Assembly (NCBI GenBank): GCA_965247115.1
Contig: CBDFGR010000003.1
Coordinates: 1,184,001-1,248,000 of the forward strand
Direction: 5' to 3'
From: Myxococcota bacterium
Lineage (GTDB): Bacteria; Myxococcota_A; UBA9160; SZUA-336
Length of the DNA stretch: 64,000 nucleotides
In this document: piece by piece, positions 48,040-58,252 of the stretch
Layout: each line of letters opens with the position of its first letter
Numbering within the stretch: the stretch's first letter is position 1
Program-made: the position numbers and the translations under genes
The notes under the pieces: generated by a model
Database searches by the model: none
What the model saw: only the letters and a program-made list of their open reading frames with translations
Told to the model about the DNA's origin: nothing

Positions 48040-48071
48040 GCCCCCGGGACCGCGCTCTGGGTCCCGGGGGC
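48040..48071 (-). terminator. 12-bp GC hairpin downstream of the aspartyl protease gene
   Basis: GCCCCCGGGACC/GGTCCCGGGGGC followed by ATTCCATTT on the minus strand (weak U-tract). Confidence 0.45.
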
Positions 48072-48116: not shown

Positions 48117-49034
48117 CTAGCGGTAGCGGAAATCCCTTGGCGCGGTCCAGGGACCGCGTGAGCCGGCAGCATCGACCGCGGCGACGCGCCAGAAGTACGT
48201 ACCGGGTCGGAGCCGCTCGACGTCCAGGCTACGGAGCTCGGTGCTGGTTCCGCTCACCAGGGTGTGCTCCACGACGTCTCGAAACGACTGGTCTGGGGAG
48301 ATCTCCAGATGGTAGCGGCTGGCACCATCCACACGCCCCCAGGCAAATTCGTAGTCGAGGATGCTCTCGCCCTGATTCCGCTCGGAGGAGATCTCCTCGA
48401 GCGTGAGCGTCTGGCGGACCGGATCCGTCTGGACGCGGAAGTGCTTGAAGAAGGACATGCCGAGCAGGCCGGTCTCGAGCGAGTCCAGGACGACCATCTC
48501 GACCTGCTCCAGCACGGCGTCACCGAGGCGCAGATTGCGCAGGGTGACGACCGGCGCGATCAGCGTCTCAGCCGAGATTCCGCGAACCTCGACGCGAGGC
48601 GTCCGCGCATCGATCCGGATCCCGAGCTGGTCCACGACGGAGCGCGGGATCGAGTTCATCATCGCGCCCGTATCGACCACGAAGCGGGCCTCGACGGAAT
48701 CGTTCAGAAGAGCCCGGACCTGCATCTGTAGGCCGGCACTCTCCAGGGAGACGATGTGGCGCAGAGAGGAGGTCCTCGTCGCGGCAGGGCTCGTCTGGCG
48801 CGCGACCACGTTGAAGCGCGTGTCGCGCGTTCCCGCCGCGACGGAAGAAAGGTCTTGCTGGTGCAGTGCCGGCACGCCAGCCGGGTCGTCCGTGAAGTGC
48901 AGACGACCTTGGGCGTCCACCCACTTGTACATGTCCGCCGAGGCAGGGCTCGCGATCAGGGTCAGGAGCAGCACAGCGGCTGCCAGGTGGCTAAGGAGTC
49001 GGGGCGGTGAATGGGGAGAATCACAAGTATGCAT
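48117..49034 (-). CDS. Secreted DUF4124 + retropepsin-like aspartyl protease + FN3-like protein
   Basis: Signal peptide, YKWVDAQGRLHFTD, FVVDTGA, GLLGMSF, YFWRVAAVD. Confidence 0.88.
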   Translation of the reverse strand: MHTCDSPHSPPRLLSHLAAAVLLLTLIASPASADMYKWVDAQGRLHFTDDPAGVPALHQQDLSSVAAGTRDTRFNVVARQTSPAATRTSSLRHIVSLESAGLQMQVRALLNDSVEARFVVDTGAMMNSIPRSVVDQLGIRIDARTPRVEVRGISAETLIAPVVTLRNLRLGDAVLEQVEMVVLDSLETGLLGMSFFKHFRVQTDPVRQTLTLEEISSERNQGESILDYEFAWGRVDGASRYHLEISPDQSFRDVVEHTLVSGTSTELRSLDVERLRPGTYFWRVAAVDAAGSRGPWTAPRDFRYR

Positions 49035-49040
49035 CCCCGG

Positions 49041-49150
49041 CTCCTTTCGCCAACCGTTCGACCCGATCGCGAGCCCGCTTGGGCGCTACTCGCGAGATAG
49101 GGCACTGGCTTTGCGTCCCCGTCTTTCGACGGGTTTGCCTCTTCGTGGAG
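49041..49150 (-). ncRNA. c-di-GMP-I (GEMM) riboswitch, variant copy
   Basis: GGCAAA-CCCGTC-GAAA-GACGGG-GACGCAAAGCC...CGGTTGGCGAAAGGAG. Confidence 0.88.
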
Positions 49151-49220
49151 CAGGCTGCACCCTTGCATCCTGCACCCATGGTGCGGCGTCTGAAACGCTA
49201 CACCGTTGCTAACAAGTCAC

Positions 49221-49348: not shown

Positions 49349-49636
49349 CTAGCTTGGGTCCTCCACCTCGATGGACGTGGCCACCCAGCCGTCGGCGGTG
49401 CGCTCGAAGCTGATGACCACGTAGCTTCCGATCGGCAGCGTGGTCAGGTCGTACACATCCTCCGGCACGTAGAACTCCAAGGAGCCCAGATAGACGGTCT
49501 GGGAGAGTGCGTAGACCTGCGTCACGAGTCCGGAAAGCGGCCTCTCGACGCTTGCAGCCTCGGCTTCTGTCACGCCGAGATAGGGCGAGCCCAGACTCAG
49601 GGTCAGGAGAGCCGCTAGAAGCCAGTTAGAGCGCAC
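49349..49636 (-). CDS. Small secreted protein (OB-fold-like), copy 2
   Basis: GGAG RBS, GTG 49636, signal peptide, 95 aa; paralogue of 53929..54216. Confidence 0.8.
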   Translation of the reverse strand: MRSNWLLAALLTLSLGSPYLGVTEAEAASVERPLSGLVTQVYALSQTVYLGSLEFYVPEDVYDLTTLPIGSYVVISFERTADGWVATSIEVEDPS

Positions 49637-49653: not shown

Positions 49654-52600
49654 TCAGAAGCGCTGGCGCCAGTAGACGAGGTCTACCGGATTGGGCAGCA
49701 GACCCGGAGCCCCGATCGACACGATGTGGCCCGCCGACGTTTTCAAGAAGATCTGCACGCCGCCGTCCAGCGAGTTGGAGACGGTGAGGCGGGGATCCGA
49801 CGGGACACCCAGCCCCGACGTCACCCGACGACCCTGGTTCGAGGAAGTCGCCGGATCGAAGAAGCCCTGGCCGGTGGCCAGGTCGAAGACGTGGGCAAAA
49901 GCCTGACCGTCCGCATCGCAGACGCTGCCCGTCCCGTCGTCCGGGAGGTAGCTCGTGGTAACGAGGACTCCGCCGAACGCAGCGTGGTTGGTGATGAACT
50001 TCTCGCCGTCCTCTGCAATGAAGTAAAACCCCAGATCGGTCAGGTCCGGATCGGACGTAAGACCCGTAATGTCGGTCAGGTTCGCCTCGGTGAATGGAGC
50101 CACGGGGACGGAACCCACCCCGGTGGGATTCGGGTCCTGAATTACGTAGAAGCGATTGTTGTCGTCCACCCCGGGATCGCCCTGGTAGACAATGTCGGTA
50201 CGCTCGCCCGTCGCGAATCCCAACGTGAGCTTGCCGGAGAGGTACGTCACTACGGGAGGAAAGAAGATGCCGCGATGGTGCAAGGCGCCGCCCGACACGA
50301 GCTGCGAATCTGCCCGGAATACAACACCAGCGGGCCACCCGTCGAAGAGACCGTCGATGTCGGTATCTTCGGCGATCCTGGAGATGTCCCACTTCCAGAG
50401 CTGGCCTCCCGCATCACCGATGTAGATCAGGTCGGCGAAGCTATCGAAGTCCAGATCGAGGACAGCGGGCGTGCTCGGCAGCGCGTAGAGCATCTGAGAA
50501 AGCTGAGCATCGCTCCCATCGTATGAGACCTGTGCGAGAACCTGGCCCGTGTCCAGGGCAACCATGAAGATCGCCTTGCTGTCATCGCTCCAGCTCGCAG
50601 CTGTGGGGTCGGACACGTACGTAAGTAGGTTGGGGTCACCCGCCGCGCGGAAGCCGCCACCGAAGATCGCGACCCACTGCTCGCGACAATCACCATCGTC
50701 CGCCGTGTTCTTTCCGCAGTGGTCTCCGAAGCCAACTGCGGCTTTGACCTTGATTCGCGTGATGATCGGTTCCGACCAGGACTCGCCAAGCGGGATGCTG
50801 GGGTCGTACAGCTCCCAGAGGAGCTTCGGGTAGGGACCGTGCGGTCCCCCGACCGCCGAGGGGTCCGTGACGTCGAGGGCGAGGTAGCCATCGCCACCCT
50901 GACGCATCCCCGTGACGAGAACCGTTGTCCACTCGGTCCCGTCCTTCGTGGTGTCTGCCGGCGAGCTCGCGAGCCAGGCATCGGCGGCGGATGGACTTCC
51001 GTCCACGTAGTACTCGCTGCGTGGGTAGTTTCTCGGGATCAGCTTGAGCTTTGGCACCAGGAAGCCCGGAACGTATGCAAAGTCTTCGTTGCCGGTCCCC
51101 AGGTCGTAGTAGTCGGTCTCGACCTCGGGCGTCGCCAGGTTGTCGCCAAACCTGTAGTCGCCCGCCTCGATAGCATGGAGCATCCCATCGTTCGCGCCAA
51201 CGTAGAGACGACGAGTCCGATTCTCGTACGTGTTGAGAAAAGTCCCAGGCTGAGCGAGCGGACCGTAGCCTTCTTCCCCGCGGAAGCCTGAAGGAGGCGG
51301 ACCAATCACGAGAGGGTTCGAGTGAAATGTGTCGCCGAACACCCACTCTCGGAGCTCCGATGTGTTCAGATCCAGGTCGAAATCGAAGCTGTCCTGACCG
51401 TAAAGAAAGTCCACGAGCTCGCCAGCCAGGGTAGCCGTGTCCGGGAACGGAACTGCTGGATCATTCGGATACAGGCCCAGCTCCGCCGGGGTCAGGCCCA
51501 GGTCCGCATCGCTGATCGTTGCCTTCGTGAAGTCGGCACGGACGCCGCCCTGGGTCGTGTAAATGCGTCGTGCGGGATGCGCGGGGTCGAGCAAGCGCTC
51601 ATAGACATCCCAGAACGGGTTCCTTGGCTCGATGAACGTATCCGTCGCATCGATTGCGGGATTGCCGTCCTTGTCCACCACCTCGAGCGAGGGCGAGAGG
51701 CGGTACGCCTCCAGGTGTCCCTCCCAGAGTCCGCGTCCGACCCTGGGGATAAACCACGCGGAGAACATGCCGTCCCCAAAGGCCGTACGGCTCGATGGGA
51801 CAGTCGAGGCTGTGAACGACGCGGCACGCTCCAGAATATCCAGCAGCGCGGCCTCGAGCGTCGCGGCCAGCTCGTTAGCGGTCCGCGCATTGTAGTACTC
51901 GCCCGAGCTGTTCAGCGCGGTCTCGCGAAGCAGTGGGTGATCAAACGTGAATCCCACCGTGTAGGTGACGATGTTCTGGGGCCCAGGCAAGTCGGGGCGA
52001 AGGTCGTTCTCGTACAGGTGGTACCCGACGTCGTCCAGCCAGTCTGTGCCGAGGGACTGGTAGGGAGGCATGTCGATTCGCCCGGTGTACTCGTCCGGCG
52101 ACTCGTTGGTGTCAACGTCAGCATTCCCGATCGCGCACATGAAGCCACCCGTGCCGCCAGGGTTGTGGTCGAAGTTGTCCATCGTGGGGGCGCCATCCGT
52201 GAGCACGACCACGAAGTTCTTGCGGCACGGGCCATCCTCCATCGGGTTCGAATTCCCGATGTTCCCGTTGGCCGCGCAGTTCCCGACGGAGTTGTCACCG
52301 GACATGTACTCGGCTACGTCGACGAGGGTCTCAGCCAGGGGGGTCCAGCCGCCAGGTTGCGTGTTGTTGATCCGAGCCACGAGCGAGTTCTTGTTTCCTG
52401 TCCCGATCGGACCGTCTATAGTCCCGCCGTTCGGATCGTTCCCCGAGCCGAACTTCGTCAGCCCGAAGCGCACGTTCTCGTTGAAGCCGTCGGGGTTGAT
52501 GAGATCAATCAGCTGCAGGAGCGCAGCTCTTGCCGTATCAAGTCTGTCCTGCGTCGGGATCGCAGGCGTAGTGCCGCTGATGATCTGTGTGAAGAGCCAG

Positions 52601-53064
52601 CTCAAGTAGTTCTTCGACCAGAGTGTCCGTGTGCCACCTGCCGTGAACTCGGGCAGCGTAAAGCGGTACTGTTGTCCCTGCGCCGAACAGGACCAGCCCG
52701 CCGGGGCAGCGGCGCAGCCCAGCGGAATGGAGGTCTGGGAGCAGCTGACACGGTCCCCGGAGTCGAGCGAGCTTCCGCTATCGGGGCAGCGGTCGAACGG
52801 GTCTCCAATGCCGGGACAGAACCCATCCGATCCGGCCATGGCCGGCACAGGTCCGATGTCGCACTCCGCGAGGACTGCGCCCATGTCGTGGAAGAGGTCC
52901 GCGTCGAAGGCGTCGTACCACATCGCGTGCGCCATCGAGCCAGAGTTGTCCAGAAGCAGCATGACGTTTGGCGGGACCACGGAGGTGACCAGATCGAGGT
53001 CGGACTGGCCGAGCGCCCGCGTGGGCACAGCAAGCAGGAGGAGTAAGACAAGTAGGCCCCTCAT
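49654..53064 (-). CDS. pilY1: Type IV pilus tip adhesin PilY1/PilC with vWA domain, copy 2
   Basis: LLDNSGSM MIDAS, TPLAETL, VLTDG; propeller motifs LYVGANDGMLHA and YYVDGSP; YWRQ end. Confidence 0.92.
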   Translation of the reverse strand: MRGLLVLLLLLAVPTRALGQSDLDLVTSVVPPNVMLLLDNSGSMAHAMWYDAFDADLFHDMGAVLAECDIGPVPAMAGSDGFCPGIGDPFDRCPDSGSSLDSGDRVSCSQTSIPLGCAAAPAGWSCSAQGQQYRFTLPEFTAGGTRTLWSKNYLSWLFTQIISGTTPAIPTQDRLDTARAALLQLIDLINPDGFNENVRFGLTKFGSGNDPNGGTIDGPIGTGNKNSLVARINNTQPGGWTPLAETLVDVAEYMSGDNSVGNCAANGNIGNSNPMEDGPCRKNFVVVLTDGAPTMDNFDHNPGGTGGFMCAIGNADVDTNESPDEYTGRIDMPPYQSLGTDWLDDVGYHLYENDLRPDLPGPQNIVTYTVGFTFDHPLLRETALNSSGEYYNARTANELAATLEAALLDILERAASFTASTVPSSRTAFGDGMFSAWFIPRVGRGLWEGHLEAYRLSPSLEVVDKDGNPAIDATDTFIEPRNPFWDVYERLLDPAHPARRIYTTQGGVRADFTKATISDADLGLTPAELGLYPNDPAVPFPDTATLAGELVDFLYGQDSFDFDLDLNTSELREWVFGDTFHSNPLVIGPPPSGFRGEEGYGPLAQPGTFLNTYENRTRRLYVGANDGMLHAIEAGDYRFGDNLATPEVETDYYDLGTGNEDFAYVPGFLVPKLKLIPRNYPRSEYYVDGSPSAADAWLASSPADTTKDGTEWTTVLVTGMRQGGDGYLALDVTDPSAVGGPHGPYPKLLWELYDPSIPLGESWSEPIITRIKVKAAVGFGDHCGKNTADDGDCREQWVAIFGGGFRAAGDPNLLTYVSDPTAASWSDDSKAIFMVALDTGQVLAQVSYDGSDAQLSQMLYALPSTPAVLDLDFDSFADLIYIGDAGGQLWKWDISRIAEDTDIDGLFDGWPAGVVFRADSQLVSGGALHHRGIFFPPVVTYLSGKLTLGFATGERTDIVYQGDPGVDDNNRFYVIQDPNPTGVGSVPVAPFTEANLTDITGLTSDPDLTDLGFYFIAEDGEKFITNHAAFGGVLVTTSYLPDDGTGSVCDADGQAFAHVFDLATGQGFFDPATSSNQGRRVTSGLGVPSDPRLTVSNSLDGGVQIFLKTSAGHIVSIGAPGLLPNPVDLVYWRQRF

Positions 53065-53606
53065 CGGTACGTGTCCGATCCCTCGCTGACCCGATACTGA
53101 GCCTGGAGCTCGGCTCTCCCTCCAACGGGATCCGTCGCGACGAGGTCCGTGCGATAGATGCCAAAGGAGAAGGTGTTCCCCGTATTGAGGTTGAGCTGGT
53201 CTCCGTCGCGGCGAGCGCGCCCTACGAACTGGATCACCTGAGGTGCTGCGTTGTTGGCCGTGCCCGTTCGCACCTGGGTGTAGAACCCAGCGCTGCTCTG
53301 CACAAACTGGGAATCACTCAGGGGCGTGATGTCCGGGTATTGGGTGTCGCCGATGTGGAGCTGGTCTCTGACAAGGCTCAGGGCGCCATCCGCTGCGAAG
53401 AAGGTCCGGAGCTTGCGGGCGGTTCGTCCGCCGGCCGTCGCCTCACCCTGGGCGCTCTGAAGGGCGCTCAGCCCCACGGCGCTGATCAGGAGCAAGATGA
53501 TAACGCTGAGAAGCAGCGCGAGGCCCGCCTCGCCGGGGCGACGCGCGGCGATCGTGTGGCGGAACTCGAATACGGGTGGGCCCGGCTTCCGAGGCTCGAG
53601 CATCAT
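53061..53606 (-). CDS. pilX: PilX-like minor pilin, copy 2
   Basis: Prepilin site EAG|LALLLSVIILLLI, FFAADGA; ATGA coupling to pilY1. Confidence 0.85.
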   Translation of the reverse strand: MMLEPRKPGPPVFEFRHTIAARRPGEAGLALLLSVIILLLISAVGLSALQSAQGEATAGGRTARKLRTFFAADGALSLVRDQLHIGDTQYPDITPLSDSQFVQSSAGFYTQVRTGTANNAAPQVIQFVGRARRDGDQLNLNTGNTFSFGIYRTDLVATDPVGGRAELQAQYRVSEGSDTYR

Positions 53607-53609
53607 CCG

Positions 53610-53714
53610 CTCCCTTCGGTAACCGTTCGACCCGTCCAGACAGCATGAGCTGCGCTGGGCTAGGGCACTGGCTTTGCGTCACCGCCTTACGACGGCTTTG
53701 CCCTTGTCGAGGAG
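53610..53714 (-). ncRNA. c-di-GMP-I (GEMM) riboswitch
   Basis: AAGGGCAAA-GCCGTC-GTAA-GGCGGT-GACGCAAAGCC...CGGTTACCGAAGGGAG. Confidence 0.92.
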
Positions 53715-53795
53715 TAGGCAGGGCGCACCTGCCCGACTCGTTGTAATTCTCCCCAAGAGCCACGGCGTCCAGGGGCCGCCGGACTCATCTGCGCT

Positions 53796-53824
53796 ATTTC
53801 GGTGACACGCGAGTGGATCTTTAG
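53796..53824 (-). promoter_or_regulatory. Sigma28/FliA-like promoter
   Basis: CTAAA-N16-ACCGAAAT. Confidence 0.6.
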
Positions 53825-53928
53825 TCAGCGCGGACACCTGCGCGAACTCGCGTGGTTCCTCCGCCCGTTGCCGTCTTGGGAGGCCCGAAGTTGGGGAGTC
53901 GGGCAAGTATTTGGATTGGGAAGCACGT

Positions 53929-54216
53929 CTAATCGGCCTCCGGGTCAAGCTCGATGGAAGTGGCAAGCAACTGACCACCCGATCGCTTGAAGCTGACCAC
54001 CACGCGCGCCCCCTCGGAGAGCTCGTCCAGGTCGTATACCTTGGCCGGGACGTAGAACTTCATGGGTCCCACATAGAAGGTGCGAGCGTGCGGGTGAACC
54101 TGGTTCACGAGGCCGGAGACGGGCCGCTCAGCCTCCGCTCCGTGGGCAGCTCCGATTCCGCCTGCAAGGCTGAGGGCGAGTGTCAGAACGGCAGCTAGAA
54201 GCCATGGTTTGCGCAC
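53929..54216 (-). CDS. Small secreted protein (OB-fold-like), copy 1
   Basis: Signal peptide, ERPVSGLV...FYVP..VYDL..L..G..VVVSF. Confidence 0.8.
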   Translation of the reverse strand: MRKPWLLAAVLTLALSLAGGIGAAHGAEAERPVSGLVNQVHPHARTFYVGPMKFYVPAKVYDLDELSEGARVVVSFKRSGGQLLATSIELDPEAD

Positions 54217-54232
54217 GGTCTCCCTCCTCTGC

Positions 54233-57200
54233 TCAGAATCGCTGACGCCAGTACACGAGACTCACGGGGTCGGGCCACAGGTCGTCAGCGTCAATGGAGA
54301 TTAGCTGTCCCGAGGACGACTTCAGCAGGATCTTCACGCCGCCCTCGACCGAACTCGAGACGGTGATCCTCGGATCCGAGGGCACGCCAAGACCTGCATC
54401 GGTGCGGCGAAGGTTGGGATCGAAGAAGCCGAGTCCGGACTCGATATCGAATATATAGGCAAAGGACTGACCCACGGCGTCGCAGATATCACCGGTTCCA
54501 TCGTCGGGCTTGTAGCTCGTCGTGATGAGGATCCCGCCGAAAGCAGCGTGGTTCGTAATGAACTTCTCGCCGTCCTCGGCGATGAAGTAGAACCCGAGAT
54601 CCGTCGGGTCACTGTCCGCAGGGAGACCCGTGATATCCGTGAGATCGGCCTCCGTGTATGGCACCACCGGCACGGACGTGACGCCTGTCGGATTCGGATC
54701 CTGAAGCACGAAGAATCGATCGTTGTCATCGCTGGCGGGATCACCCTGGTAGTCGAGCTGGGTTCGCTCCCCGGTCCCGAAGGCCAGTACGAGCTGTCCC
54801 TTCAGGAACGTGGCAACCGGCGGAAAGAAGATGCTCCGGTAGTGCAGGCCGCCGCTCGAGACGTTCTCGGGCGGAATCTGAAACAGCACGCCTCCGGGCC
54901 AGTTGTCGAAGAGCCCATCGCTATCCGTATCGTCCGCAAGCTGCGAGATGTCCCACTTCCAGAGCTGTCCGCCCACATCGCCGATGTAGACCACGTCTGC
55001 GAAGCCGTCGAAATCGAGGTCCAGGACGGCTGGCGTGCTGGGCAGCGAGTAGCGCATCTCGGCGAGCTGAGGATCGGCTGGATCGTAGGCGAGCTGCGCC
55101 AGAACCTGACCGGTAGCGAGGTCAACCACAAAGATGGCCTTGCTGTCGCCGCTCCAACTGGGATCGGCCGGATCCGAGACGTAGGTAGGGAAGTTCGGAT
55201 CGCCACTCGCACGGTACCCCCCGCCGAACACCGCGACCCATTGCTCACGGCAATCGCCGTCGTCACCGTCCGCGCCGCAGTGGTCGCCAAAGCCCGTACC
55301 TGCCCTGACCTTTACCCGCGTGATGATCGGCTCCGACCAGGTCTCTCCCAGTGGGACGGTCGGATCGTCAAGCTCCCAGAGGAGCTTCGGATACGGACCG
55401 TGCGAGCCGCCAACTGCAGCGGGATCCGTGACGTCGAGCGCGAGATACCCGTCCCCACCCTCGCGCATTCCCGTGACCATGACCGTCGTCCACTCGTCGG
55501 GCTCCTTGACGGTATCCAGCGCGGAGCTCCCGAGCCAGGCATCCGCAGCAGACGGGCTGCCGTCCACGTAGTACTCCGTGCGCGGGAAGTTCCGCGGGAT
55601 CAGCTTGATCCTATCCAGGAGGAACCCTGGGATGTACGCGAACTGCTCGTCACCGCTGCCCAGGTCGTAGTAGCTGGTCTCGATCTCCGGCGTAGCGGGG
55701 TTGTCGCCGGAGTTGAAGTTGCCTGCCTCGATAGCGTGGAGCATGCCATCGTTGGCTCCGGCAAAGAGACGCCTCGACCTCTCCTTGTAGAGGTCGAGGA
55801 AGGTCCCGGGTTGGGCGAGCGGACCGTAGCCCTCTTCTTTCCTCAGGCCGGGCGGTGGCGCTCCGATCACGAGCGGGTTCGAGTGGAACACGTCGCCGAG
55901 CACGGCATCGCGCAGCTCAGAGGTATCCGCGTCCCTGTCCTCATCAAACGTGTCGTGTCCGTACAGGTAGCTCACCAACCCGTCGGCCAGCGCTTCGGTG
56001 TCTGCGAAGGGAACCGCTGGGTCGTTTGGATAGAGACCGAGCTCGGAAGTCTGCAGAGCGAGAGCTGTGGCGTCGATGGTCGTGGTGTTGAAGTCCGCTC
56101 GGATTCCCATCTCTGTGGTGTATATCTGCCGAGTCGGATGGGAGGGGCTCCGAAGCCGATCGTGCACGTCCCAGAACGGATTGTGCGGCTCGATGAAAAC
56201 GTCTGTCGCGTCGATGGCCGGATTGCCGTTGCGGTCGAGCACTTCCAGCGCCGGGGACAGCCGGTATGCCTCGATGTGACCCTCCCAGAAGCCGTTGCCA
56301 GGCCGGGGCATGAAGGAGGCCACGAACATGCCGTCTCCGAAGGCCGTGCGACTTGACGGAACGGTCGTGGCAGCGAAGGACGTGGAGCGCTCGATGATGT
56401 CGACGAGGGCCGCCTGGAGCGTCGTAGCAAGCTCACTCGCGTTGCTCGCCACGAAGTACTGCCCGGTGCTGTTGACTGCCGTGTCGCGAAGCAACGGGTG
56501 ATCGATGGTGAAGCCGACCGAATAGGTCACGATGTTCTGCGTGCCCGTCAGGTCGGGGCGCAGATCCGTGTTGTACAAGTGGTAGGCAACGTCATCCAAC
56601 CAGTCTGTTCCGTCGGACTGGTAGGGAGGCATATCCGTGCGTCCGCTGTACGCGTCGGGGGACTCGTCCGTGTCCCCGTCCGCGTTGCCGATCGCGCAGA
56701 CGAAATCCGCGGTGCCAGGGCCGTTCCGGAAGTCATCCCTGGTGGGCTCGCCATCCGTCAGGACAACCACGAAGTTCTTCCGGCAGTCGCCATCCTCCAT
56801 GGGGTTGGACCCGCTGATGCTGCCCGACGCGGAGCAGCTGCCAACGGAGTTGTCTCCGGACATGTTCTCTGCAATGTCGACGAGGGTCTCTGCCAGAGGG
56901 GTCCAGGTGGTGGGATCGGTGTCCTCGATTTCGTCGATGAGCGAGGACTTGTTTCCGCTCGCGATCGGCTCCCGGATGTAGCCGCCACTTGGCTCACTGC
57001 CCGAGCGAAAGTTCGCGAGCCCAAAGCGGACAGCTTCAGGCTGCCCGTCGGGATTGATCAGGTCGACGAGCTCGAGGAGGGCGTCCCGCGCCGTATCGAT
57101 CCGGTCCACGTTGGGGATTGTCGGGGTGTTCCCGTTGAGCAGCTCCGCGAAGAGCCAGCTCAGGTAGTTCCTTGACCATCGTGTGGTGCCACCACTCGTG

Positions 57201-57616
57201 AACTCCGGCAGCGTGAAGTGGTAGCGCGACCCCGTAGAGCAGGACCAGCCGGCCGGTGCAGCAGAGCAGCCCCCTGGAACCGTACCGAGGTCGCAGTGCA
57301 CGTGACTGCCGGAGCTCTTCCTGTTCCCGTTGTCGGGACAGCGGTCCAGGCTGTCTCCGCTACCGGGGCAGAACCCGTCCGAGCCCGCAATCGCCGGGAC
57401 CGAGCCGATGTCGCAATCGTTCCGAACCGCTCCCACGTCGTAGAACACTCCCGGGTCGAAGTCGCCGTGCCACATGGCGTGCGCCATCGAGCCGGAGTTG
57501 TCCAGAAGGATCATCACGTTCGGGGGCACGGCCGTGGTGACCAGGTCGAGGTCGGACTGTGCCTGGGCACTGCCGGCTGCGAGAACCATGAGTGCCGCGA
57601 CGAGCGTGACTCTCAT
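54233..57616 (-). CDS. pilY1: PilY1/PilC with vWA domain, copy 1
   Basis: Collinear paralogue of 49654..53064. Confidence 0.92.
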   Translation of the reverse strand: MRVTLVAALMVLAAGSAQAQSDLDLVTTAVPPNVMILLDNSGSMAHAMWHGDFDPGVFYDVGAVRNDCDIGSVPAIAGSDGFCPGSGDSLDRCPDNGNRKSSGSHVHCDLGTVPGGCSAAPAGWSCSTGSRYHFTLPEFTSGGTTRWSRNYLSWLFAELLNGNTPTIPNVDRIDTARDALLELVDLINPDGQPEAVRFGLANFRSGSEPSGGYIREPIASGNKSSLIDEIEDTDPTTWTPLAETLVDIAENMSGDNSVGSCSASGSISGSNPMEDGDCRKNFVVVLTDGEPTRDDFRNGPGTADFVCAIGNADGDTDESPDAYSGRTDMPPYQSDGTDWLDDVAYHLYNTDLRPDLTGTQNIVTYSVGFTIDHPLLRDTAVNSTGQYFVASNASELATTLQAALVDIIERSTSFAATTVPSSRTAFGDGMFVASFMPRPGNGFWEGHIEAYRLSPALEVLDRNGNPAIDATDVFIEPHNPFWDVHDRLRSPSHPTRQIYTTEMGIRADFNTTTIDATALALQTSELGLYPNDPAVPFADTEALADGLVSYLYGHDTFDEDRDADTSELRDAVLGDVFHSNPLVIGAPPPGLRKEEGYGPLAQPGTFLDLYKERSRRLFAGANDGMLHAIEAGNFNSGDNPATPEIETSYYDLGSGDEQFAYIPGFLLDRIKLIPRNFPRTEYYVDGSPSAADAWLGSSALDTVKEPDEWTTVMVTGMREGGDGYLALDVTDPAAVGGSHGPYPKLLWELDDPTVPLGETWSEPIITRVKVRAGTGFGDHCGADGDDGDCREQWVAVFGGGYRASGDPNFPTYVSDPADPSWSGDSKAIFVVDLATGQVLAQLAYDPADPQLAEMRYSLPSTPAVLDLDFDGFADVVYIGDVGGQLWKWDISQLADDTDSDGLFDNWPGGVLFQIPPENVSSGGLHYRSIFFPPVATFLKGQLVLAFGTGERTQLDYQGDPASDDNDRFFVLQDPNPTGVTSVPVVPYTEADLTDITGLPADSDPTDLGFYFIAEDGEKFITNHAAFGGILITTSYKPDDGTGDICDAVGQSFAYIFDIESGLGFFDPNLRRTDAGLGVPSDPRITVSSSVEGGVKILLKSSSGQLISIDADDLWPDPVSLVYWRQRF

Positions 57617-58155
57617 CTGTACGTGTCAGCTCCCTCGCTGACCCGGTACTGCGCCTGGAGCTCGACGCTTCCCCCCACAGGATCCGTCGCGACGACTTCC
57701 GTGCGATAGATTCCGAATGTGAAGGTGTTGCTCGAGTTGATGTTCAGCTGATCGCCGTCCCTGCGTGCACGGCCAACGAGGAGGATCTCCTGAGGCACGG
57801 CGCTGCTCGTGCTCCCGGTTCGAACCTGCGTGTAGAGGTCCGCGCTGTTCTTCAAGAACTGCGAGTCATTCAGCGCCGTGATGTTCGGGTACTGGGTATC
57901 GCCGATCGTGAGCTGATCCTTGACCAGGCTCAGCCCCCCGTCGGCGGCGAAAAAGGTTCGGAGCTTGCGGGCGGTCCGGCCACCTGCGCTCGCCTCGCCC
58001 TGGGCACTCTGGAGGGCACTGAGACCCACGGCACTGATCAGGAGGAGAATGATGACGCTGAGAAGAAGAGCGATGCCGGCCTCGTCGCGGCGGCGTGTCT
58101 CGAACTTCTTGTGGCGCTCAACGGGTGGGCTCGGCTTCCGAGGCACGAGCATCAT
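57613..58155 (-). CDS. pilX: PilX-like minor pilin, copy 1
   Basis: EAG|IALLLSVIILLLI. Confidence 0.85.
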   Translation of the reverse strand: MMLVPRKPSPPVERHKKFETRRRDEAGIALLLSVIILLLISAVGLSALQSAQGEASAGGRTARKLRTFFAADGGLSLVKDQLTIGDTQYPNITALNDSQFLKNSADLYTQVRTGSTSSAVPQEILLVGRARRDGDQLNINSSNTFTFGIYRTEVVATDPVGGSVELQAQYRVSEGADTYR

Positions 58156-58159
58156 CCGG

Positions 58160-58252
58160 TCCCTTCGGTAGCCGTTCGACCCACCCGCCTGCGCAGGCTA
58201 GGGCACTGGCTTTGCGTCACCGCCTTACGACGGCTTTGCCCTTGTCGAGGAG
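58160..58252 (-). ncRNA. c-di-GMP-I (GEMM) riboswitch
   Basis: Same core as 53610..53714 with a shorter P3 tip; ends CGGCTACCGAAGGGA. Confidence 0.92.

Follow-up and report, generated by a model that had tools for sequence, protein, structure and literature searches.

We suggest that a c-di-GMP-I (GEMM-I) aptamer preceding an aspartic protease gene, in which G replaces the ligand-pairing base C92, is a working riboswitch variant whose preference for its signal is weakened or changed. Judged from sequence comparison, this is likely because G92 recurs in 16 intact switches with companion changes. These 16 distinct aptamers all belong to one lineage-specific GEMM-I subtype and were found in 6 genomes and 5 metagenome contigs. 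The aptamer lies in a 64-kb window (the whole stretch of DNA that was analysed, 64,000 nucleotides), to which positions refer unless a contig is named, and in which Rfam identifies three c-di-GMP-I aptamers.

Identity and register of the variant aptamer

The aptamer (49046-49149, minus strand) matches RF01051 over its full length (1-87) at 57.4 bits (E 1.3e-08, cmscan), above the gathering threshold of 35 bits. The alignment reads gGCgaa where the consensus has gCCgaa, placing the G at 49050 in the C92 column, with a posterior of * throughout the 3' end. Counting nine bases from G83 (49059) to 49050, an independent anchor, gives the same position. The initial annotation, which had read a G in place of the C found in the two pilX aptamers (ending CGGCTACCGAA and CGGTTACCGAA), is confirmed, and its description of a perfect P2 with a GAAA loop, of a P3 extension and of preserved G20 and A47 equivalents (G at 49139, A at 49112) holds as well. 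Features that it had not noted are a J1/2 of 4 nt (AAGA), compared with 5 nt in the pilX copies, a U at position 89, and the ability of G92 to pair with C46.

In aptamers of this class G20 makes a Hoogsteen contact and C92 a Watson-Crick pair to the ligand (excerpts of PMC6140456 and PMC5888326). Here the G20 and A47 pocket bases of RF01051 are present and the Watson-Crick partner of the second guanine is G. The C44 (C49115)-G83 (G49059) pair, the GAAA loop of GNRA type, and the G14 (49144)-C93 and C13-G94 pairs could, judged from the sequence, all form. The A20 with C92 of GEMM-Ib is absent, the pocket being G20/G92 in 16 of 16 copies. The aptamer also falls outside the c-di-GMP-I-GGC and -UAU variants: RF01051 is the best overlapping clan match and the triplet is G-A-G.

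No C enters the pocket under either the Rfam or a slipped register; with P3 slipped (G50-C93, C51-G92) the following bases are GAAAGG, and this register is disfavoured by U89. A private mutation was rejected, as the sister species (G002) has an orthologous gene (91% identical) whose aptamer differs at 3 sites and keeps G92. A read error was rejected too: for contigs assembled from 8 runs (8 studies, one run possibly being the source sample) no difference is listed at 49050. No RNA run was listed as covering the stretch. The same run contigs do differ at nearby sites (e.g. 48987 and 49026, in some runs), and in two runs 49000-49200 is recovered in one piece with 0 differences.

Anatomy of the element and its gene

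On the minus strand a CUCC arm (49147-49150) is predicted in all folds tested to act as the anti-Shine-Dalgarno arm of a P1 extension by pairing with the Shine-Dalgarno-like GGAG (49041-49044), which stands 6 nt before the ATG. There follow C13-G14, J1/2 and G20 (49139-49145), the P2 hairpin CCCGUC-GAAA-GACGGG (49118-49133), and C44-G45-C46-A47 (49112-49115), which provide the tertiary pair with G83, the pocket floor and the stacking A47 (roles from excerpts of PMC11705072 and PMC9049102). P3 (49052-49110, with G83 at 49059 and U89 at 49053) is of the type GCCAGUGCCC / GGGUCGAACGG that is the hallmark of the host-class subtype, and carries a distal extension (49095-49089 / 49073-49067). Neither this P3 nor that of any of the 99 subtype aptamers has the customary CUAA/UAUG tetraloop receptor, and in nearly all 99 an extension of P1 pairs with the ribosome site.

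The aptamer lies 11 nt upstream of the ATG that starts a 305-aa gene (48117-49034, minus strand) with DUF4124 and clan AA aspartic protease domains (PF13511, PF13650), a signal peptide predicted by eye and a TIGR02281 match below cut-off. A terminator-like hairpin, a consensus match only, lies 3' of this gene (48040-48071, minus strand), and no sigma-70-type promoter match was found.

Two G20/C92 aptamers on the same strand served for comparison, one before a pilX-like gene and pilY1 (53615-53712) and the other before pilX and pilY1 (58164-58250). They belong to two tandem pilX-pilY1 cassettes (49654-58250) with one C92 riboswitch each; a third pilX-riboswitch unit is found on contig C1 (L007). 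Between pilY1 and the G92 leader, 49349-49636 (minus strand) probably encodes a short secreted protein of ~95 aa, with a GTG start after GAGGAG.

Recurrence and range of G92

When 225 genomes of the class were scanned with a pattern that left position 92 unspecified, 50 of them yielded 84 matches in all, carrying 59 C, 18 U, 7 G and 0 A. The G92 copies came from two families: one each in the host (G000) and G002, three in G017 and two in G060. The host itself has 4 C92, 2 U92 and 1 G92 aptamers and no A20 pocket; of its U92 aptamers, L002 (C3:1449629-1449717) precedes an HDOD gene and L004 (C3:1509860-1509946) a type IV pilin.

Across 185,579 species genomes (GTDB) the G92 pattern gave 116 loci, 14 of them true G92 aptamers by eye: nine of the subtype, six repeating known sequences and three new (L293, L295, L347), and five of ordinary type. 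The other 102 were dropped as C92 aptamers with a chance match downstream or as non-aptamers. In metagenomes, a scan that accepted either A or G at this position yielded five true aptamers among 50 loci, all with G; the remaining 45 had no aptamer 5' half. No A92 appeared in the two scans permitting A (12 G92 vs 0 A92), and the 5' half was intact in all 12 G92 matches, though the class and metagenome patterns left it unspecified. The patterns used miss copies with an odd P2 or a very long P3. A viral scan with a loose pattern gave 109 loci, mostly chance matches, with no genuine G92 seen by eye.

The presence of G92 in 16 aptamers before unrelated genes contradicts the earlier proposal of an effect on the protease gene only. 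Nor is the aptamer general to protease orthologues: of 30 homologue loci fetched (flanks up to 1.5 kb, some cut by contig ends), only those of G000 and G002 showed one. The secure range of the subtype G92 is one class. A spread over three phyla was judged weak, the two copy-bearing genomes outside the class (G225 and G226) being isolated among their relatives; the subtype aptamer was not found around G226 (150 phylum members and 40 relatives) or around G225 (60 relatives), and transfer or mis-binning is possible.

The five ordinary-type G92 aptamers (L262, L299, L324, L333, L339; register confirmed) are scattered over unrelated bacteria. Two of them have A20, and L299 precedes a sigma-factor-like gene (fliA-type, by eye). 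A tree of 93 aptamers, built with four sites masked and poorly supported, shows G92 as scattered: it requires 11 changes, where shuffling gave 14.9 on average and 11 at the least. This tree cannot separate one origin from many.

Companion changes and signs of selection

The comparison set comprised 99 distinct subtype aptamers, 16 with G92 and 83 others, and Fisher p-values for G92-linked features in it are overstated, kin not being independent. G20 and C93-G94 are kept in 16/16 G92 copies and P2 is fully paired in 15/16, with compensatory changes in P2, and the distal P3 loops vary. J1/2 has 4 nt in 16/16 G92 copies vs 40/83 of the other genotypes, and starts with AA in all 16. A G stands two bases before G20 in 12/16 G92 copies vs 4/40 among the other 4-nt linkers.

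At positions 89-90 the sequence C89-U90 occurs in 0/16 G92 copies vs 64/83 others. We attribute this avoidance to slippage of P3, since folding predicts that a C at 89 together with G92 raises the probability of a slip, by four bases of the 3' strand, from 0.11 to 0.55. The sole G92 copy with C89 (L394) has C90 and a predicted slip of 0.02.

The G92 copies of G017 have three different linkers and a P3 hairpin style common with a U92/C89 paralogue, which argues against pure hitch-hiking. The kept fold and the avoidance of C89-U90 point to selection for a folded, working pocket, and the comparison of aptamers supports well the view that a working aptamer has been kept. A recurrent pocket change, a conserved fold and covarying bases, which together would mark a new variant class, are all found in these 16 copies, kin among them not being independent.

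Genes behind the aptamers

The Pfam comparison of genes took in 58 proteins from among the downstream ORFs. A20/C92 aptamers precede an SLT transglycosylase in 8/12 cases, G20/U92 aptamers an HDOD, EAL-HDOD or PilZ gene in 8/12, and G20/C92 aptamers a pilin or PilX in 6/22. Behind G20/G92 (12 tested) we found the aspartic protease, a subtilase and two beta-propellers, whereas 8/12 had no Pfam match, at least two probably being wrong frames; the gene at L293 reads after frame correction as a ResA/TlpA-like TPR protein. Unlike the other genotypes, none of the 12 tested was a pilin, EAL, HDOD, PilZ or SLT gene, and most genes behind G92 read by eye as secreted proteins.

Some loci bring the genotypes together. 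In G226 related ResA/TlpA-like genes stand behind one G92 copy and two C92 copies, a subtilase gene stands behind G92 in L087 and behind A20/C92 in L021, and G225 has a triple tandem of near-identical units at ~217 nt spacing (L450:1, minus strand, C3:59089-59612) with pockets U92-G92-G92, each followed by GGAG.

A20/C92 aptamers, of cGAMP type, were seen 27 times, and precede SLT lytic transglycosylase genes at L013, L014, L399, L411, L418, L421, L423 and L440. The U92 aptamers L432, L434, L435 and L048 of genus g29 precede EAL-HDOD or PilZ genes; the Hypr motif pattern was found in 0/12 genomes of this genus, which suggests that U92 there reads c-di-GMP rather than cGAMP.

A high-threshold c-di-GMP switch as the proposed explanation

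Folding without ligand (ViennaRNA) predicts that G92 extends P3 by the pairs C44-G94, G45-C93 and C46-G92. The probability of the extension pair between C46 (49113) and G92 is 0.79 in this copy, averages 0.54 over the G92 copies and falls to 0.01 after reversion to C. The extension fold is predicted at -56.5 kcal/mol vs -54.2 for the aptamer fold, a gap of 2.3 kcal/mol that tertiary contacts and ligand together could cross. The extension occupies bases of G21-C46, C44-G83 and the top of P1, C44-G83 being essential for binding (excerpt of PMC11705072). No covariation was seen for the three extension pairs, which are invariant. The ribosome site is masked in every predicted fold, and we infer OFF control from the anatomy alone.

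The explanation that we place first, tentatively and at a little under an even chance, is a low-affinity, high-threshold c-di-GMP translational switch. Without ligand, the G92-C46 helix would disassemble the pocket and the top of P1. One guanine of the ligand would keep its G20 contact and A47 stack, the second would have no Watson-Crick partner, and the aptamer fold would be reached only at high ligand. Closure of P1 (G14-C93, C13-G94) would then tighten the CUCC/GGAG helix that covers the ribosome site, and translation would fall. C92, U92 and G92 may thereby grade the threshold within a single regulon, whose products are surface and secreted proteins.

We rank the c-di-GMP reading first because G92 occurs at loci and in gene families where C92 and U92 copies are found too, and because no new synthase accompanies it. 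The ResA/TlpA-like genes of G226, the G225 tandem and the subtilase of L087/L021 speak for a common regulon, and the seven canonical-Asp GGDEF domains of the host also count in its favour. In Smith 2010, affinity was reportedly still biologically relevant in many pocket mutants. Mutations at the C92 site and at G20 are said to change the off-rate more than the on-rate (excerpt of 10.1101/617340, citing earlier work), and wild-type Vc2 binds at 0.011 nM (excerpt of PMC9049102), which leaves room for a loss of affinity.

Against this reading stands engineered Vc1 C104G, the only direct measurement of this substitution: in dialysis at 30 uM RNA it abolished the sequestration of c-di-GMP, although Vc1 is a weak binder (excerpt of PMC4744006). 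Plain weakening also gives no account of why G occurs and A does not, for which only the predicted C46 pair would offer an explanation. The lack of pilin or signalling genes behind G92 in the 12 tested hints at a separate signal. Finally, with the ribosome site predicted to be masked in all folds, the OFF direction of control is putative.

Alternative readings

It may be that G92 locks the C46-G92 extension, so that a ligand-blind, fixed structure uncouples the gene from the signal. This is unlikely, although no other fold is predicted lower in energy, here or for the alignment consensus, with the mean probability given above against that of the revertant, and engineered Vc1 C104G lost binding and kept expression (excerpt of PMC4744006). 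If the structure were blind to ligand, drift would be expected in G20, C13-G14, P2 and the GGCAAA strand, yet they are kept in 16/16. Several copies persist per genome (3, 2, 2, 2), with a tandem duplication in G225, and the invariance of the extension pairs, with no covariation, also weakens this reading.

A changed specificity of one kind or another is, its three forms taken together, as likely as the c-di-GMP reading. Slightly more doubtful than a fixed structure is a sensor of 3',3'-c-AMP-GMP bound in flipped orientation, with G on G20 and A on G92 as a G-A pair. In its favour, all 6 G92 genomes have a Hypr-type GGDEF (Ser plus GGDEF, a criterion from an excerpt of PMC6456294), but the motif is common, occurring in at least 41 of 81 class genomes. 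In the host it is one of nine GGDEF matches (C2:1522505-1522981, GHLVGS...GGDEF); eight of these have a readable motif, the other seven of canonical Asp type. A motif scan also recovered one identical stretch twice in the host, at C2:777905 and C3:2498594, possibly a mobile element. No A20 aptamer appears among the readable RF01051 matches in 5 of these 6 genomes. Adenine would be better read by U92 than by G92, and a purine-purine pair is wide for the GEMM-I pocket, which likewise counts against c-AMP-GMP.

Less probable again is a sensor of a pyrimidine-containing dinucleotide, G92 pairing with c-CMP-GMP in Watson-Crick fashion or with c-UMP-GMP by wobble. G for C is the exact Watson-Crick swap and would explain why G occurs without A; the companion change in J1/2, the G two bases before G20, fits as well. 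An engineered G20A/C92U aptamer binds c-di-AMP, so that the pocket can be re-read by pairing (excerpts of PMC7288161 and PMC9049102), and cUGMP and cCUMP are minor products of bacterial CD-NTases (excerpt of PMC7288161). Against this, a SMODS-family cyclase, sought with one Pfam family, turned up in only one of five G92 genomes and not in the host, and GGDEF sites select against pyrimidine NTPs (excerpt of PMC6456294). No unusual GGDEF specificity residue common to the G92 genomes was found; at the base-specificity position, normally Asp or Ser, the GGDEF domains of L214 (G017) and L471 (G226) carry Asn or Gly. The sharing of loci and gene families by G92, U92 and C92 also argues against such a ligand. 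The initial annotation had inferred an altered response or ligand, perhaps pyrimidine-containing: the changed response appears likely, but nothing that we found supported the pyrimidine. A diadenylate cyclase domain was present in 5/5 G92 genomes searched.

A one-base ligand, where G92 itself would occupy the second slot (e.g. opposite an adenine of J1/2) and G20/A47 would read linear pGpG or a single guanine nucleotide, is improbable and speculative: the invariant 4-nt linker beginning AA (16/16), the absence of A20 from the group and the 23 class III cyclase-domain matches of the host would fit, but a 4-nt AA linker is also found in about half of the other genotypes (40/83).

Relation to known systems and meaning

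With Vibrio cholerae Vc2 (RF01051) the aptamer shares its fold, G20, G21-C46, C44/G83, A47, the GNRA loop, G14-C93 and C13-G94, and differs in G92, the 4-nt J1/2, the P3 without the CUAA/UAUG receptor and the P1 extension over the ribosome site. Gs1761 of Geobacter (GEMM-Ib, A20/C92) is likewise a single pocket change on the same scaffold in hosts with Hypr GGDEF; there, however, the change is at the Hoogsteen site 20, whereas here it is at the Watson-Crick site 92 with G20 kept in 16/16. Rare pocket variants of class I are reportedly named by their three pocket bases (Weinberg 2017), and the G20/A47/G92 combination would presumably be called 'GAG'. Engineered Vc1 C104G has the same base at the same pocket position, but is a knockout in a weak aptamer that lost binding, while the natural copies carry U89 and J1/2 changes (excerpt of PMC4744006). 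Rfam c-di-GMP-I-GGC and -UAU (names in an excerpt of PMC12452182) are, like the present group, variants of this kind. A literature search gave no description of c-di-GMP-I-GAG, of C92G/C92A or of natural U92/G92; the supplements of Weinberg 2017 and Smith 2010 may list them.

A natural C-to-G swap at the Watson-Crick contact, together with companion changes, is the signature that lay behind new riboswitch ligands on other scaffolds. Whether riboswitches for further cyclic dinucleotides exist is a question posed in PMC10043782 (excerpt), and the 16 RNAs make it testable, with siblings of C92, U92 and A20 type in those genomes to serve as controls. That G20/A47/G92 constitutes a new riboswitch class for c-CMP-GMP, c-UMP-GMP or another guanine signal is unlikely; if true, such a molecule would be an everyday second messenger for secreted proteins and more than an anti-phage alarm. 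If instead C, U and G set graded thresholds within one genome, this would show one scaffold tuned across a regulon.
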